Made by a program: the position numbers and the translations under genes
The notes under the pieces: model-generated
The model's input: only the letters and a program-made list of their open reading frames with translations
The model's database searches: none
Told to the model about the DNA's origin: nothing
Shown here: one piece after another, positions 1,539 through 12,256 of the stretch
Layout of the letters: each line of letters opens with the position of its first letter
Numbering within the stretch: the first letter of the stretch is position 1
NCBI RefSeq assembly: GCF_003334355.1
Contig: NZ_QOWP01000016.1
Direction: 5' to 3' (one strand)
Length of the DNA: 64,000 nucleotides
Origin: Escherichia coli
Lineage (GTDB): Bacteria > Pseudomonadota > Gammaproteobacteria > Enterobacterales > Enterobacteriaceae

Positions 1539-3017
1539 TTACGCATTCGACCAGCTCTGGATCGAATCCACATTCCCCAATTCCCCATGCATCACTTCAT
1601 ACGATTTTTTCAGGATCACATCAGTATGTTTGGTTAGGTCTTTGAAAATGCCTTTATTCATCGCGTCGTAGCGTTTGGCATTGCTCTCAATCGGTATAAA
1701 GATATCTTTCACGCGAACCATCTTATCAACAGCCGTTGCGTAATCCGGGTATAGCCCCAGACCTACCGCTGTATTAATCGCTGCTCCCAGACTTGCACAA
1801 CCGTTAATGGCGTTACGGCGTGCCGGAAGGTTGAACACGTCGGCAAAAATTTGCATAAACAGATCGCTGTTCGAACCGCCGCCAGTAATGATCACATGCT
1901 TCGCAAAGTGATTCATTTCATTACACATATTGTCGTAATTGTTCTTCAGCGTTAGCGCCACACTTTCCAATATCGAACGATATATCCATGCGTAATCCAT
2001 GCTGGAATCAAAGCCGATCATAATCCCGCGTTTGTACGGTTCCCACGGATTGGTCAGCCAGTCCAGCACCGTCATCAGCCCATTACAGCCAGGTGGCACA
2101 CTAGAGGCTTTCTTGTTGAGTAAATCTTCCGGTGAAAGATCCTGCGCCCTGGCATCCTGAATTAACGACTCGCCTAACATGTCACGCAGCCAGCTCACCG
2201 TCCACATACCTTTGCGAATACCGTAACCTTCATACAGCAATGTTTGCGGAATAGAAGACATAATCGGCCAGTACGCCACCGGATCTTTCGGCAGTGCTTT
2301 GCCGTTCATCATCAATGCGATGTAAGTGCCAAGAGAAATTACCGCAGTTTCATCATCCAGTAATCCAGCCCCCAGAGCTTCTACCGGTTTATCACTGGTG
2401 GTACAAACAACCGGCAGTCCTGCCGGGAAATGTGTCGCCAGTGCGGCTTGTGGTGTGATATGTCCGAGGACGGTGCCAGGCATTTGCACATCAAACAGCA
2501 TATGACGGGGGATATTAAACTTATCCATTACCGCAGCATCTTCGCTCCATGCCCAGCTCTTATAATCCACCGGCCACTGACCAAAATAGTTGGCGATATT
2601 GTCTTTAAACTCGCCGGTTAAGCGATGCGTCAGATAACCCGAAAAAGAGGTGACATACGCCACGTCAGGATTCGTATGTTCGTAAGGGCGTGTAACGCGT
2701 GCATCCTGCCAGCTAATCAACGGCGCAGCTGGCGTGCCATCGGCTTTCAATAACGCACGGCAGCAACGGATGGATCCCAGACCAATACCGACAATATCTT
2801 CTTTATTCCCGGCAAACTGACTCATCAAATCGTGACCGGCAAAACATAATGATGCCCATAAATCGTCGTCAGGATGTTCTGCAGTATCGGCATCTGGCGT
2901 GTGCATCGGCTGTAATAAGCCTTTACCTTCGCAAACCACATTACCTTCCAGATCGTACATCACCACTTTTGTGCTCTGACTTCCGCCATCAATCCCTATG
3001 ATGTATTTTTTCGACAT
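1539..3017 (-). CDS. ygcE: FGGY-family carbohydrate kinase
   Basis: 492-aa ORF with N-terminal IIGIDGGSQSTKV sugar-kinase motif; length and sequence match my recollection of YgcE. Confidence 0.9.
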   Translation of the reverse strand: MSKKYIIGIDGGSQSTKVVMYDLEGNVVCEGKGLLQPMHTPDADTAEHPDDDLWASLCFAGHDLMSQFAGNKEDIVGIGLGSIRCCRALLKADGTPAAPLISWQDARVTRPYEHTNPDVAYVTSFSGYLTHRLTGEFKDNIANYFGQWPVDYKSWAWSEDAAVMDKFNIPRHMLFDVQMPGTVLGHITPQAALATHFPAGLPVVCTTSDKPVEALGAGLLDDETAVISLGTYIALMMNGKALPKDPVAYWPIMSSIPQTLLYEGYGIRKGMWTVSWLRDMLGESLIQDARAQDLSPEDLLNKKASSVPPGCNGLMTVLDWLTNPWEPYKRGIMIGFDSSMDYAWIYRSILESVALTLKNNYDNMCNEMNHFAKHVIITGGGSNSDLFMQIFADVFNLPARRNAINGCASLGAAINTAVGLGLYPDYATAVDKMVRVKDIFIPIESNAKRYDAMNKGIFKDLTKHTDVILKKSYEVMHGELGNVDSIQSWSNA

Positions 3018-3043
3018 GATTTTTCTCCTGTAATTTTCCTGGC

Positions 3044-4321
3044 TTACTTGCTGCTAGCCATTGCGGGGGCGCTATCAGCAGTACGAATTTTTTGGAACAG
3101 CAAAAAGGTAAAGACAATCACCATGCCGAGCGCCGCCATGCCCATCAGCCACATATTGCGGTAGGCTTCTGCAGCGGGCAGGGTGTCTTGCCAGTGGCCG
3201 ATAATTGGGTAAACGAAGACATCCGGCAGGAATCCAATCACCGAACAAATACCTACCGTGGTGCCCATAATGTAAGACGGTGTTCTCGCTTCGCCAGGGC
3301 AGGCCCAGTACAGCCCGCGTGAGGCGTAACAGGTGAATCCCAGCAGTAAAATCAGGCCAATCCCCATCGCGACCGATTGCGGGTTAGAGTTCGTGACGAG
3401 CAGGGCAGTTAACGTCAGCAGGCCGAGTACGGAAAGGATTTGGATCACGCGGGTAGGGGATTTCACTTTGCTGTAGGTGGTGATTATGCCGCCAAGTGGG
3501 CCGCACAGCGCGCGGAATATTTTGTTGATCACAATCCCCATGTAGCTCGCCGCCACCAGCGACATGCCATACATTTCGGTCAGATAGTTGGTGGAGTAAC
3601 TCAGAATGGCGTAGATGGTGAAGACGCCAAAAATCACCATGCTGCAATACCAGGTGGTGCTGATACGCAAAACGGCCAGGATGTCGCTAAGCTGGAATGA
3701 CTGTTTTTCTTCGTTATTGGCACTGCGCAGGTTGTTGTTATCGCTAACAAAAAACCAGCACAGAATCCCCAACAAGATGTAAACCACACTATAGATGATA
3801 ATGACCGTTTTCAGGCTGGTGCTGTCATCCGGTGCAAAGCGAGAAAAGACCCACATGGTAAACACCGCCAGCGACATTACACCGACGCCGCGCAGCCCTT
3901 CCATCCAGCCCATAATTTTCCCTTGCTCGCTATGATCGCCAAGCAACGATGCAGCTTTAATCGACACCGACCACAGCATTAAAATCGTCGTTATCGCAAA
4001 GGCGATCTGAATACAGAGCATTACCCACAGCGGTGGATACGTTGCCATTAACAGACCCAGTAATCCGGTAATGATCATCGCGGAAGTAATCATTTTGCGG
4101 TGTGAAAATTTATCGGCAATAACGCCGCTGGGGGCATAAAGAATAATAGCAGCAATACCAAAGGTACTCATTATTAAACCTATCTCGGTATTGCTGAATC
4201 CCATAAATTTCGCCATGGGAATTTGATAAATATAACGTAAATAAGCCAGGTCGAAACTAACGCCGCCGCTAAAACTAATTATCGCGAGGGTTATCCAACG
4301 GCGATATGAGTTGTGTTGCAT
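3044..4321 (-). CDS. yqcE: MFS-type transporter (polytopic membrane protein)
   Basis: 425-aa hydrophobic ORF 26 bp upstream of ygcE on the same strand, likely an operon. Confidence 0.88.
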   Translation of the reverse strand: MQHNSYRRWITLAIISFSGGVSFDLAYLRYIYQIPMAKFMGFSNTEIGLIMSTFGIAAIILYAPSGVIADKFSHRKMITSAMIITGLLGLLMATYPPLWVMLCIQIAFAITTILMLWSVSIKAASLLGDHSEQGKIMGWMEGLRGVGVMSLAVFTMWVFSRFAPDDSTSLKTVIIIYSVVYILLGILCWFFVSDNNNLRSANNEEKQSFQLSDILAVLRISTTWYCSMVIFGVFTIYAILSYSTNYLTEMYGMSLVAASYMGIVINKIFRALCGPLGGIITTYSKVKSPTRVIQILSVLGLLTLTALLVTNSNPQSVAMGIGLILLLGFTCYASRGLYWACPGEARTPSYIMGTTVGICSVIGFLPDVFVYPIIGHWQDTLPAAEAYRNMWLMGMAALGMVIVFTFLLFQKIRTADSAPAMASSK

Positions 4322-4499
4322 ATCGTATTCCCATTTGTAATAGACAAAAAAAAGAGAAAAGTAAGCCGCCCTTTCAGGTGGATTACTTTTCTCAGGTCTC
4401 TAGTAATTGAAATAATAAATAACATGGAAAGCAGAGGTGTTGTGTGAGAGTAATCACGCTTCTGCTTTTTAAAACTATTTGACAATACGAATATCACAC

Positions 4500-10717: not shown

Positions 10718-10733
10718 AAATTATCCTTATTAT

Positions 10734-10994
10734 TTATCCAAAGCGGTAGGTGATGCCGAATCCGGAAGGCGGATAGCGCCACTGTTGTAGTGTTGATTCG
10801 TCGCACAGCAAACGGCAGGTGCCACACTCCAGGCAACTGCGATAGTCAATACGTAAGTCACCTTCCGGTGTGAGCGAAAAAAGACCTGCCGGACAGGCGT
10901 TAATCAACCGTTCTGCCGTCTGGCGCTCAACGGAGTCAGCCGGAACAATGTGCGGCGCATCAGCAACGCGCCAGAGATTACGGGCTACAGACAT
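10734..10994 (-). CDS. ygcO: FixX-like 4Fe-4S ferredoxin-like protein
   Basis: Cysteine cluster CLECGTCRLLC in the translated ORF; 86-aa version from the internal Met; overlaps the ygcN stop. Confidence 0.8.
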   Translation of the reverse strand: MSVARNLWRVADAPHIVPADSVERQTAERLINACPAGLFSLTPEGDLRIDYRSCLECGTCRLLCDESTLQQWRYPPSGFGITYRFG

Positions 10995-12256
10995 CGCAGA
11001 CTCCTGATAACATCGCCCGCCAGATGCCACAGGCCGTGACGACGTAAATGATGCCAGAATAACTGGCGCAGCGGTGGAACAGGTTTATCACCCTGATCCC
11101 ATAAATCGCGGGAAATATCCTGCATTAACGCAGGCCACGTACGGTACCATCCCGGGCGTTGCAAAAGCGCCGGAACATGCTGATAACGCTGTAGAACATC
11201 CCACAGCAGGCTGCGCTCTACGTTGTGATGATAAAGCGGAAACAGATTTTGCGGCTCGCGGTGCTGGCAGGCGCTTATCAGCGTTTGTGCCGCCGCCTGC
11301 GCGCCAGTCAGCGCCATATCCATGCCGCGCACGGAAATTCCGGTATTGACGCAACTGCGCAACGCATCGCCCACCAGCAGCCAGCCGTTACCGGCGTATT
11401 GCACCGGCATACTGTGCAAGCCACCTTCTGGCACCAGATGCGCACCATACTCCAGTGATTCCGTGTTTTTGATAAGCGGGCGCACTGCCGGATGCGCTTT
11501 AAAGCGAGTCAGCAGCTCGCTTGCCGGAACACGGCTTTGCGTAAGGGAAGAGAGCGGGCAAACAATCCCTAACGAGAGCGTTTGTTGATTAGTATAAAGA
11601 AATGCGCCGCCGGGTAAGTCATCACAGATCCCGCCGCTGAACAGCAACGCTGCGCCTTCGTTATTCTCCAGATGAAAACGTTCTTCAATAGCGGATGTTT
11701 CCAGCGACAGCACTTCTTTGATCCCCAACGCCATCGCTTCGCCAGCAGGACGAGTCACTAACCCGTGACGCTCAGCCAGGACGCTGTTGGCACCTTCTGC
11801 CAGCACCACATAACGGGCGCGGAGAATATCGTCACCACAAATGACACCACACACCCTGCCGTTTTCTTCATACAGTGCATCCACCGTCGCACCAGGGATG
11901 CATTCGACACCTTCTTTTTCGGCTTCGGCAACCAGCCACGGATCGAACCGTGCACGTAATACACTCCAGGATTCACCGCCGGGCTGTAAGCTGGAAAACG
12001 TCGTTGCGCCATCCGGCGTTAACAGGGAAAGGCTTTCGTGAGTGATGCATCGTTCAAGAGGCGCGGTCAGATGAAACTGAGGGAGGAGTTCCGCGAGTGC
12101 ATGGGTATATAACCGCCCGCCGGAAAGATTTTTGCTGCCGGGGATTTCAGCGCGTTCCAGTAACAAAACGGATAAACCCGCTCGCGCGCAGCGTAACGCG
12201 CAAGCGGTGCCTGCAATACCGGCACCAATAATAATAATGTCGCAGTCGTCTTCCAT
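10985..12256 (-). CDS. ygcN: FAD-dependent oxidoreductase (FixC / ETF-quinone oxidoreductase-like)
   Basis: 423 aa from MEDDCDIIIIGAGIAGTACA, which contains the GxGxxG dinucleotide-binding motif. Confidence 0.88.
   Translation of the reverse strand: MEDDCDIIIIGAGIAGTACALRCARAGLSVLLLERAEIPGSKNLSGGRLYTHALAELLPQFHLTAPLERCITHESLSLLTPDGATTFSSLQPGGESWSVLRARFDPWLVAEAEKEGVECIPGATVDALYEENGRVCGVICGDDILRARYVVLAEGANSVLAERHGLVTRPAGEAMALGIKEVLSLETSAIEERFHLENNEGAALLFSGGICDDLPGGAFLYTNQQTLSLGIVCPLSSLTQSRVPASELLTRFKAHPAVRPLIKNTESLEYGAHLVPEGGLHSMPVQYAGNGWLLVGDALRSCVNTGISVRGMDMALTGAQAAAQTLISACQHREPQNLFPLYHHNVERSLLWDVLQRYQHVPALLQRPGWYRTWPALMQDISRDLWDQGDKPVPPLRQLFWHHLRRHGLWHLAGDVIRSLRCL

Follow-up and report, generated by a model that had tools for sequence, protein, structure and literature searches.

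The Escherichia coli ygc cluster: a putative GlpP-type riboregulon with a leader RNA outside Rfam and an orphan pathway around an ADPS-type flavoenzyme

The ygc locus

We analysed the ygc gene cluster in a 64-kb stretch of Escherichia coli DNA (the window, in whose coordinates all positions are given unless another locus is named); window 1-14000 is the ygc region. Ten adjacent genes occupy 1539-12256, as an earlier note on this DNA had listed them, and all ten open reading frames were found at these positions. The RefSeq annotation uses the same ten gene names and sets the cluster between a CRISPR array and queD-cysJ. Two divergent operons, ygcWUSRQ and yqcE-ygcE, are accompanied by a separate operon, ygcNOP (Table 1). 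We propose that the cluster is a GlpP-type riboregulon in a Gram-negative host, with a leader RNA that Rfam does not cover, and that it controls an orphan pathway built around a flavoenzyme of the alkyl-dihydroxyacetone-phosphate synthase (ADPS) type. The locus is widespread in the species: a megablast search with window 1-14000 gave matches in all 5426 complete E. coli genomes, with at least 80% coverage in 4928 of them.

Profile searches agreed with the domains that had been assigned to the ten proteins: an FGGY kinase, two major facilitator superfamily (MFS) transporters, a short-chain dehydrogenase/reductase (SDR), the ETF and ETF_alpha domains of electron-transferring flavoproteins (ETF), a FixC-like and a FixX-like protein, and G3P_antiterm. 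The GxGxxG motif of YgcN (IIIIGAGIAGT) and the CxxCxxCxxxC motif of YgcO (CLECGTCRLLC) are both present. The NCBIfam matches of all the ygc enzymes lie below the curated equivalog cut-offs, and therefore homology alone names none of the proteins.

The description of the cluster as uncharacterised also held. Full-text literature searches with the ten gene names, the protein families and candidate substrates, with most subscription journals outside their coverage, returned no paper in which a substrate, mechanism or regulatory RNA is defined, and no functional study of the ygc genes, only genome-wide lists and incidental mentions. D-serine raises ygcU expression 1.69-fold in enterohaemorrhagic E. 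coli, where a ygcU deletion is without a D-serine phenotype (PMC13012123). YgcS has been described as a homologue of NiaP, and its overexpression raises the production of nicotinamide mononucleotide (PMC8601175), which says little about its native role. The "ygcO" of a review on the nitrogen-related phosphotransferase system (PTS-Ntr) is a typographical error for ycgO and not this gene. Ten adjacent genes of the best-studied bacterium have gone without a function for decades.

Table 1. Coordinates of the genes, leader RNAs and regulatory sites of the ygc locus; P1 is the upstream helix of each leader
Feature	Position	Strand	Description
ygcE	1539-3017	-	492-residue open reading frame; FGGY-family kinase; second gene of the yqcE-ygcE operon
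yqcE	3044-4294	-	MFS transporter open reading frame; alternative start 4321
yqcE leader RNA	4346-4410	-	Read from the sequence
yqcE leader terminator hairpin	4393-4354	-	U-tract 4353-4346 (T8)
yqcE leader P1 helix	4407-4402 paired with 4387-4382	-	GA-rich loop between the strands
Putative second CRP site	4443-4458		TGTGAgagtaaTCACG; from sequence only; some 42 bp upstream of where yqcE transcription is inferred to start
CRP site	4498-4518		acTGTGAttacgaTCACAtta; from sequence, between the divergent promoters
ygcW leader RNA	4549-4617	+	From terminator scan and sequence; ends about 22 nt before the ygcW ATG
ygcW leader P1 helix	4552-4557 (GUUACC) paired with 4573-4578 (GGUAAC)	+	GA-rich loop 4558-4572
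ygcW leader terminator hairpin	4567-4608	+	19 bp; U-tract 4609-4617 (T9)
ygcW	4640-5425	+	SDR, putatively NAD(P)-dependent; KduD/gluconate-5-dehydrogenase-like
ygcU	5495-6949	+	FAD enzyme of the vanillyl-alcohol oxidase (VAO) fold, ADPS type; 484 residues
ygcS	6971/7040-8380	+	MFS transporter; 6971 is the long-form start, 7040 the short-form start
ygcR	8358-9137	+	Divergent beta-type ETF subunit; its start overlaps the stop of ygcS
ygcQ	9134-9994	+	Divergent alpha-type ETF subunit; its start overlaps the stop of ygcR
ygcP	10142-10717	-	Putative RNA-binding antiterminator of the GlpP family (PF04309); last gene of ygcNOP
ygcO	10734-10994	-	FixX-like ferredoxin
ygcN	10985-12256	-	FAD oxidoreductase, FixC-like and similar to ETF-quinone oxidoreductase

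Leader RNAs of the two divergent operons

The 345-bp spacer between yqcE and ygcW contains a CRP site and, on each strand just before the start codon, one strong intrinsic terminator; the hairpins with their U-tracts lie 22-30 nt before the start codons. The ygcW leader folds with -34.2 kcal/mol (z -7.0) and the yqcE leader with -21.6 kcal/mol (z -4.1). Both leaders have GAGAAA(A/G)GUAA in the 5' arm of the terminator and an upstream box, (G/A)UUACY-AGAGA. This box is complementary to the terminator 5' arm, and the two can therefore pair as a 6-bp helix, P1, around a GA-rich loop of 15 nt, to the exclusion of the terminator. Taken alone, P1 contributes -6.7 kcal/mol in the ygcW leader and -1.4 kcal/mol in the yqcE leader, a weakness to be expected if the antiterminator has to be held closed by a protein. 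No Rfam family was found at either leader in an E-value-mode search of 1-13100, and the leader stem, GAGAAAAGUAAC, reads as distinct from the Bacillus subtilis glp leaders.

The leaders were then compared across species. A scan of one genome per species with YgcU gave 67 loci, to which look-ups by protein identity added nine, and 45 distinct leaders were aligned (alignment A1); leader searches were carried out with a covariance model (R1). Across the 45 leaders, 11 of the 17 pairs of the terminator helix have changed on both sides, and none of 500 shuffles reached the observed values. The P1 pairing is kept in 98.1% of the cells of the alignment, as against 17-64% when the partner strand is slid. 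Compensatory changes are seen in three of the six P1 pairs, with G-C replaced by A-U in 12 sequences, A-U by G-C in three and U-A by C-G in four. For the arm nucleotides GUAAC, the upstream strand is a better pairing partner than the 3' arm of the terminator, which argues that P1 itself is under selection.

In the 64-kb window, the only two matches of R1 are the two leaders, with 74 bits (E 4e-12) for the ygcW copy and 70.9 bits (E 1.8e-11) for the yqcE copy. Each of 46 other Enterobacterales loci also has exactly two matches, and the copy upstream of yqcE is found in all 46. Leaders are matched as well in Photobacterium, Sporomusa, a metagenome-assembled genome (MAG) of the Syntrophomonadaceae, Firmicutes HGW-7 and Enterococcus. 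Outside the seed of the model, the matches extend to Salsuginibacillus, Alkalicoccus, Vibrio hannami, Anaeromicrobium and Fodinisporobacter (loci L066, L074, L075, L076 and L077), and in such non-seed loci the match is always the 5' leader of a cluster operon. Photobacterium has a yqcE orthologue (58% identical) behind a copy of the same leader RNA. A conserved extended -10 in Enterobacterales, and canonical -35 and -10 boxes in Firmicutes, put P1 within a few nucleotides of the inferred 5' end of the transcript. In Limnobaculum eriocheiris (L041, 3057-3190) the yqcE-ygcW spacer is a single palindromic hairpin flanked by A9 and T9, which scores as a leader on both strands and has lost the upstream P1 box. 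With the spacer reduced and the P1 box lost, the regulatory region of this species therefore appears to have collapsed.

The promoters between the two leaders are under the influence of CRP. The CRP site at ygcW/yqcE, earlier predicted by PhyloScan (PMC1794230), was seen by footprint-seq and has an in vitro Kd of 1.7 nM (PMC12871828), and yqcE-ygcE is listed among the Crp-activated operons (PMC8085971). The putative second site lies 57 bp from the measured one. A conserved extended -10, TGtTATTTA at 4424-4416 on the minus strand, is the basis for the inferred yqcE start, and the measured and the putative site would each fall some 42 bp upstream of an extended -10 promoter, one for either direction. 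This arrangement suggests that yqcE and ygcW have paired class II CRP promoters.

YgcP and the proposed RNA antitermination

The distribution of the leader follows that of ygcP. A leader was found in every YgcP-encoding locus examined, and the sole leader-bearing locus without ygcP (L038, Serratia microhaemolytica) has ygcP on another contig. In 11 loci without ygcP, R1 gave no match, and the cluster contains a regulator of the RpiR/MurR (SIS-domain) or GntR type instead. Three apparent exceptions were resolved: the leader lies upstream of ygcU and of a gene for a betaine/choline/carnitine transporter (BCCT) in L072, and upstream of an OpuC-type operon in L066 and L074.

Residues 12-184 of YgcP give a full-length match to Pfam G3P_antiterm (PF04309; 210 bits, E 1.6e-62), and the best match in the Protein Data Bank (PDB) is 3kts (E 1e-27). 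The ratio of non-synonymous to synonymous substitution rates (dN/dS), which we estimated within Escherichia and against Citrobacter and Klebsiella, is 0.010-0.039 for ygcP. The earlier note had proposed RNA antitermination from the family name of YgcP; the proposal now has behind it two leader terminators and a conserved antiterminator motif that co-occurs with ygcP, and such control of both ygc operons is strongly supported by comparative sequence evidence. It is very probable that YgcP is the protein that antiterminates at the two leaders, and we infer that it does so by binding their RNA under the control of a ligand. To our knowledge, the characterised members of the GlpP family all come from Firmicutes, and none has been characterised in Proteobacteria.

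The fold of PF04309 proteins resembles a TIM barrel. YgcP might consequently be seen as a TIM-barrel enzyme of the pathway, and the leader hairpins as plain attenuators or bidirectional terminators, and both the solved structures of the family (3kts and 1vkf) and the constraint on ygcP, which equals that on the enzymes (dN/dS 0.01-0.04), are compatible with such a role. We consider it highly improbable. The co-occurrence of ygcP and leader is without exception, RpiR or GntR regulators are found where both are missing, and in those loci the core enzymes function without YgcP. Moreover, the upstream strand of P1 covaries with the terminator arm, and the layout matches that of the GlpP-controlled glpD leader. 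If antitermination by YgcP is confirmed, GlpP-type control would extend beyond Firmicutes and beyond glycerol, and the motif could be added to Rfam; the two leaders of about 68 nt, together with YgcP, would make a usable reporter in a screen for the inducer.

YgcU and the conserved core

In nearly every locus ygcW and ygcU stand side by side, with 62-80% and 54-73% identity across phyla, and ygcE orthologues are found in the cluster across phyla with 43-58% identity. Judged from these loci, the conserved core consists of the SDR YgcW, YgcU and the FGGY kinase YgcE. The dN/dS values of the core genes are 0.009-0.022 (ygcW), 0.006-0.025 (ygcU) and about 0.03 (ygcE). Among the loci examined, ygcN, ygcO and ygcS are confined to Enterobacterales.

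YgcU consists of the Pfam domains FAD_binding_4 and FAD-oxidase_C. It had been described as GlcD-like, a label that is ruled out by motif, sequence and fold, in all of which ADPS is closer. The best PDB sequence match of YgcU is ADPS (4bby, E 2.8e-40), compared with E 4.7e-26 for a D-lactate/glycolate enzyme and E 4.8e-22 for LctD (7qh2_C); the NCBIfam model of GlcD gives 143 bits against a cut-off of 568. In the alignment, R262, Y398 and H438-440 of YgcU fall on the catalytic Arg419, Tyr578 and His615-617 of ADPS, and these residues are invariant in 22 diverse YgcU orthologues (54-86% identity). The C-terminal (S/T)EHG(V/I)G motif of GlcD/LctD-type 2-hydroxyacid dehydrogenases, which holds their catalytic/metal-binding His and Glu, was not found in YgcU, which reads VHHHGIG instead, and HHHG is present in 74 of 74 orthologues. 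When the AlphaFold2 model of YgcU (pLDDT 77.8) was searched with Foldseek, hits 1-29 were all ADPS chains, with TM scores of 0.72-0.75. The N-terminal region of ADPS has no counterpart, as the alignment begins between ADPS residues ~138 (2uuu) and ~215 (4bby). Sequence and model thus agree on YgcU as an ADPS-type enzyme that lacks the eukaryotic N-terminal region, and not a GlcD-type 2-hydroxyacid dehydrogenase. The likeness implies that YgcU uses a phosphoketone resembling dihydroxyacetone phosphate (DHAP). If this is true, flavin chemistry of the ADPS type, known until now from the synthesis of ether lipids, has a role in bacterial catabolism as well.

YgcU could still be a GlcD/LctD-type dehydrogenase of a 2-hydroxyacid (lactate, glycolate or a sugar acid) that passes electrons to EtfAB (YgcRQ) and then to FixCX (YgcNO), in the manner of the anaerobes' Ldh-EtfAB complexes. 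The matches of YgcU to GlcD (143 bits) and LctD (E 5e-22), the ETF genes found directly after ygcU in many anaerobes and the D-lactate dehydrogenase-type structures, which are close second-tier fold matches, all fit this alternative. We nevertheless regard it as quite unlikely: HHHG is universal in the orthologues while the EHG motif belongs to a separate second flavoprotein, ADPS scores higher by sequence and by fold with its catalytic Arg, Tyr and HHH conserved, the universally linked kinase and SDR would be left without a role, and the core occurs without ETF.

This second, EHG-type flavoprotein (LctD/GlcD-like, with SEHGVG or TEHGIG) is a feature of the clusters of anaerobes and Photobacterium and is missing from E. 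coli. It lies after the ETF genes (L002, 13241-14782; L004, 13187-16591; L072, 13233-16800) and is itself followed by a second ETF pair in Photobacterium and HGW-7; the alpha subunit of the second pair of Photobacterium gives a faint match to a Pfam ferredoxin domain. The arrangement resembles a complete Ldh-EtfAB-type unit joined to the ygc core. A different arrangement occurs at L006 (349-5317), where a second ADPS-type (HHHG) flavoprotein of 561 residues is divergent from a ygc-like operon and adjoins a GlpK-like FGGY kinase and a GlpD-like DAO protein; this unit may be a related module for another glycerol derivative.

YgcW scores 351 bits with the NCBIfam KduD model (cut-off 369) and 182 bits with the GolD/DthD family, and among solved structures it is closest to KduD and Gno enzymes (E 1e-58). 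KduD and gluconate 5-dehydrogenase oxidise the hydroxyl that neighbours a terminal CH2OH. In Enterococcus canis the glycerol dehydrogenase GldA (444 bits, cut-off 336) takes the place of YgcW. The best NCBIfam scores of YgcE, far under the cut-offs, are with XylB (143 bits) and LsrK (139 bits), and the closest solved structure is that of the autoinducer-2 kinase LsrK (5ya0, E 7e-30); LsrK and XylB both phosphorylate a terminal primary hydroxyl. The relatives of YgcW, YgcE and YgcU therefore point to a substrate with a glycerol-like end, which would be made into a phospho-hydroxyketone, the sort of DHAP-like head that ADPS binds.

The transporters of E. coli say less. YqcE weakly matches the D-galactonate transporter subfamily (64 bits). 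YgcS matches the NCBIfam aromatic-acid/H+ symporter family with 182 bits, sugar porters with 142 and the organic-cation family with 139; the idea that YgcS is an organic-cation carrier was not upheld, as the aromatic-acid symporter family outscores it. A GC-rich 9-bp hairpin with a T-rich tail is found at 6991-7012, between the ygcU stop and the short-form ygcS start. It lies inside the long-form reading frame, which is RefSeq's choice, and the start codon of ygcS is therefore ambiguous. The hairpin could be an internal attenuator.

Betaine carriers and the substrate

A link that the earlier note had missed connects the cluster to betaine-type transporters and MttB-family methyltransferases. 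BCCT carriers adjoin the cluster in Sporomusa, Alkalihalobacillus, Photobacterium, Firmicutes HGW-7, Vibrio hannami and Anaeromicrobium, and ABC systems of the OpuC/OsmF type occur with it in Fodinisporobacter, Salsuginibacillus, Alkalicoccus and the Syntrophomonadaceae MAG. MttB-family methyltransferases adjoin it in four anaerobes, one of which also has a corrinoid protein and a pterin methyltransferase there. In Sporomusa, HGW-7 and Anaeromicrobium the BCCT gene follows the same leader RNA (in Sporomusa the BCCT promoter and leader are near-identical copies), as does the OpuC-type operon in Salsuginibacillus and Alkalicoccus, and in Vibrio hannami and Fodinisporobacter the carriers are encoded within leader-controlled operons. 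In these seven lineages, then, the carriers stand behind the same leader or in the same operon, and they are therefore co-regulated with the cluster and not merely its neighbours. Subfamily typing of the BCCT, OpuC and MttB neighbours, which might have named the solute, returned only generic matches below the cut-offs.

The association suggests that an overlooked quaternary-ammonium nutrient is involved, which would matter for how osmolytes and methylamines are turned over in marine, hypersaline and gut habitats. As a tentative proposal from these gene neighbourhoods, to which we give somewhat less than an even chance, the natural substrate would carry a trimethylammonium-type group on a glycerol-like backbone. 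Our literature search, again with most subscription journals outside its coverage, gave no catabolic route for candidate quaternary-ammonium glyceryl substrates.

A bolder version is that YgcW, YgcE and YgcU form a new route in which covalent flavin chemistry of the ADPS type cuts the C-O or C-N bond that joins a quaternary-ammonium group to the glycerol backbone, under a new, phylum-spanning class of GlpP-dependent leaders. The deacylated backbone of a betaine lipid (glyceryl-trimethylhomoserine) or (2,3-dihydroxypropyl)trimethylammonium would be possible substrates, and the products would be triose phosphate and free betaine or trimethylamine. This version is, in our estimate, unlikely. Were it true, it would be the first GlpP-type antitermination described in Proteobacteria and a new methylamine-related activity in gut Enterobacteriaceae, because the locus is near-universal in E. 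coli, Citrobacter and Klebsiella.

The cluster could also encode an ordinary route for a sugar, polyol or sugar acid (a ketodeoxy-acid, tetritol or pentulose) by way of an SDR and an FGGY kinase, with YgcU oxidising a polyol phosphate like GlpD or EryB and the betaine carriers being incidental. YgcW is nearly KduD-grade (351 against 369 bits), YgcE resembles XylB and YqcE weakly resembles D-galactonate transporters. CRP activation is typical of sugar operons, the RpiR/SIS regulators of Bacillaceae sense phosphosugars, and the erythritol and threitol routes use an SDR and a kinase. By contrast, the cluster has no aldolase, dehydratase or isomerase, seven lineages have their BCCT/OpuC carriers behind the same leader or inside the operon, and MttB-family genes adjoin the cluster in four anaerobes. 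On balance, we hold such a route to be rather unlikely.

The electron-transfer module

YgcR matches Pfam ETF with 60 bits and has Paracoccus EtfB as its best PDB match (E 3e-11); YgcQ matches ETF_alpha with 63 bits and ETF with 28 bits, and its best PDB match is human ETF-alpha (E 8e-23). ETF (PF01012) and ETF_alpha (PF00766) domains in two adjacent subunits with overlapping reading frames place the pair in the ETF family. The best PDB matches of YgcR are non-bifurcating ETFs, although weak (E 3e-11), and both subunits are too divergent for a bifurcation motif to be called. YgcN gives 380 bits with NCBIfam PRK10015 and 361-362 bits with FixC, below the cut-offs, and has a GAGIAG motif; YgcO gives 82 bits with FixX (cut-off 166) and has the CLECGTCRLLC motif. 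A FixC-like flavoprotein and a FixX-like 4Fe-4S ferredoxin are thus encoded with an ETF, as in FixABCX-type systems, with scores below the equivalog cut-offs. The flavin site of YgcQ was compared with the flavin contacts of human ETF alpha (Arg249, Gln262/Thr266 and Gln285/His286): the Arg of the SRA motif is kept, VGQTGK has become IGISGH and GAIQHLAG has become GAAALMAG; YgcQ may still bind FAD.

The module evolves 5-15 times faster in dN/dS than ygcW, ygcU, ygcP, queD and cysJ, with values of 0.10-0.25 for ygcR, 0.11-0.24 for ygcQ, 0.11-0.32 for ygcO and 0.06-0.15 for ygcN. Between E. coli and Citrobacter or Klebsiella, YgcQ is 56-63% identical and YgcU 93-94%, and outside Enterobacteriaceae the ETF genes are only 27-38% identical. 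Reading frames of the ygc genes are intact, except for one internal stop in each of two ygcQ comparisons (Citrobacter and Enterobacter), which we put down to the extrapolation of gene boundaries. The cluster has no ETF genes in Erwinia, Pantoea, Izhakiella, Serratia proteamaculans, S. quinivorans and Bacillaceae, and in Erwinia, Pantoea, some Serratia and Bacillaceae FixCX is missing from it as well. By these rates and this distribution, the electron-transfer module is a lineage-specific part that is kept under weaker constraint, still with purifying selection.

The earlier note had called the cluster an ETF-coupled oxidation pathway. The ETF and Fix genes are indeed present in E. coli, but they are missing from the cluster in several lineages and evolve fast; phyletic pattern and evolutionary rates rule out the ETF as the core of the system, and "ETF-coupled" would describe its E. 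coli version and not the system as a whole. Fast evolution, patchy presence and the loss of residues in YgcQ mean that the link of the ETF to YgcU may be weak or indirect. That the ETF is a direct partner of YgcU is, from the sequence comparisons, possible but on the doubtful side of even.

The same rates could be taken to mean that the E. coli locus is a cryptic or decaying remnant, with the core selected in other niches and the ETF/FixCX module drifting and non-functional. The dN/dS values of the module are 5-15 times those of the core, YgcQ has diverged far more than YgcU, its canonical flavin contacts are lost, and the literature searches gave no reported phenotype. Decay is, all the same, most improbable to us: apart from the two ygcQ stops the frames are intact, module dN/dS (0.06-0.32) is well below 1, the locus is found in 4928 of 5426 complete genomes, and both leaders and the CRP site are conserved.

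Proposed mechanism

The best explanation for the locus, drawn by analogy, would be a catabolite-controlled regulon that is built like B. subtilis glp and serves a glycerol analogue. Specifically, we propose that ygc encodes a CRP-activated, YgcP-antiterminated route in which a glyceryl-type quaternary-ammonium compound is converted to a DHAP-like phosphoketone that is then taken by YgcU, and we assign a probability of roughly 0.55 to this reading. CRP-cAMP would open the two divergent promoters, of yqcE-ygcE and ygcWUSRQ. By default, transcription would stop about 68 nt in, at the leader terminator, because the 3' strand of P1 doubles as the 5' arm of a strong terminator and P1 is weak. YgcP loaded with a phosphorylated intermediate would bind the P1/GA-rich element and hold P1 closed, which would lead to read-through. 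YqcE, and possibly YgcS, would import X-CH2-CHOH-CH2OH, a compound with a glycerol-like 1,2-diol end. YgcW would oxidise its secondary alcohol to a hydroxyketone and YgcE would phosphorylate the primary alcohol, giving X-CH2-CO-CH2-OP; the order of these two steps could be reversed. With flavin chemistry like that of ADPS, YgcU would act on the alpha carbon of the ketone, and would either displace or cleave X, which would give a product at the level of triose phosphate, or dehydrogenate that carbon. In E. coli, the flavin electrons of YgcU could be exchanged with YgcRQ and YgcNO, linked to the quinone pool, with flow in either direction. In other phyla, X probably bears a quaternary ammonium group. 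For the order and nature of the chemical steps, taken by themselves, we would put the chances just short of even.

Several observations weigh against this proposal. None of the enzymes reaches a curated NCBIfam cut-off, and the motif shared by the ygc and glpD leaders is a resemblance and not a mapped GlpP contact site. E. coli uses MFS carriers and not BCCT or Opu systems, and the best family of YgcS is that of the aromatic-acid symporters. D-lactate dehydrogenases are close to YgcU in fold, with TM scores of 0.67-0.69 against 0.72-0.75 for ADPS, a modest margin, and YgcU is without the N-terminal region of about 150 residues of the eukaryotic ADPS. The chemistry of ADPS is redox-neutral, a poor fit with a dedicated ETF. 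YgcQ is without the canonical Gln/Thr and Gln-His flavin-contact residues of EtfA, the rates of ygcR, ygcQ, ygcO and ygcN are 5-15 times those of the core, and several Enterobacterales and the Bacillaceae do without ETF and FixCX in the cluster. The link between ETF and YgcU may, in addition to being weak or indirect, have originally been tied to the LctD-like flavoprotein that flanks the ETF in anaerobes.

Other features of the locus

The CRISPR array beside ygcE (76-903 and 1352-1496) has 14 copies of the type I-E repeat GAGTTCCCCGCGCCAGCGGGGATAAACCG with a 61-nt period, and three degenerate repeat remnants lie nearer ygcE. In a related strain, the array is split by an IS421 element. The gap between the convergent genes ygcQ and ygcP (10000-10115) is filled with palindromes resembling repetitive extragenic palindromic (REP) sequences and bacterial interspersed mosaic elements (BIME). 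Their only database signal is a sub-threshold match to Rfam naRNA4 at 10042-10115 on the minus strand, with 30.7 bits against a gathering score of 59.5.

Comparison with known systems

YgcU shares with ADPS (AGPS; 4bby, 2uuu), the peroxisomal ether-lipid enzyme, the VAO fold and the Arg, Tyr and His-loop residues. It differs in length (484 residues against 658), has no N-terminal region, and the two are only 22-25% identical. Unlike ADPS, YgcU has its gene in a catabolic operon that also encodes a kinase and an SDR, often together with an ETF, and lipid substrates are unlikely for it because the carriers are MFS, BCCT and Opu systems.

Polyol routes made of an SDR and an FGGY kinase are known for erythritol, L-threitol and D-threitol in Mycobacterium smegmatis. 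In the ygc cluster, as in such routes, an SDR would make the ketose and a kinase would trap it as the phosphate; unlike them, ygc is without isomerases and has an ADPS-type flavoenzyme and betaine-type transporters.

The Ldh-EtfAB complex (LctBCD) of Acetobacterium woodii (7qh2) also has a VAO-fold flavoprotein encoded beside EtfB and EtfA, and YgcU, YgcR and YgcQ give significant matches to LctD, LctB and LctC. Here the differences are that YgcU has HHHG and not EHG, that the LctD-like partner is another gene, which is missing in E. coli, and that YgcQ is without the N-terminal ferredoxin domain.

The layout of four components, ETF with FixC and FixX, recurs in FixABCX of E. coli, the partner of the carnitine operon, and in YdiQRST, and YgcN and YgcO match FixC and FixX at the level of paralogues. 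The fix and cai genes, like the ygc cluster outside Enterobacterales, are associated with quaternary-ammonium metabolism. In contrast to FixABCX and YdiQRST, the ygc genes are split over two operons and the cluster has no acyl-CoA enzyme; the ygc ETF subunits are also very divergent, with 43-76 bits against ETF models.

The closest regulatory parallel is the GlpP system of B. subtilis, in which GlpP antiterminates glpD, glpFK and glpTQ and responds to glycerol-3-phosphate, the product of the kinase. The ygc system differs in its Gram-negative host, its non-glp target genes and its distinct stem sequence, which no Rfam family covers, and the ligand of YgcP would presumably be another phosphorylated intermediate. 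The regulators of the two systems come from the same Pfam family, and both have an intrinsic terminator in the 5' untranslated region (5'UTR) of the controlled operons. The 5'UTR of glpD is an experimentally established target of GlpP (PMC10573289, PMC9604022); in it, GGUC...GACC closes the loop CUGAGAUGAGGAGA and GACC opens the 5' arm of the terminator (PMC9604022, Table S4). The ygc leaders likewise have a short helix that closes a GA-rich loop, with its 3' strand serving as the terminator 5' arm. Both operons are under catabolite control, as in B. subtilis glp (PMC10573289, PMC9604022), and in each case a carrier-kinase operon (glpFK or yqcE-ygcE) and a dehydrogenase operon (glpD or ygcWU and the genes that follow) would be governed by one antiterminator.

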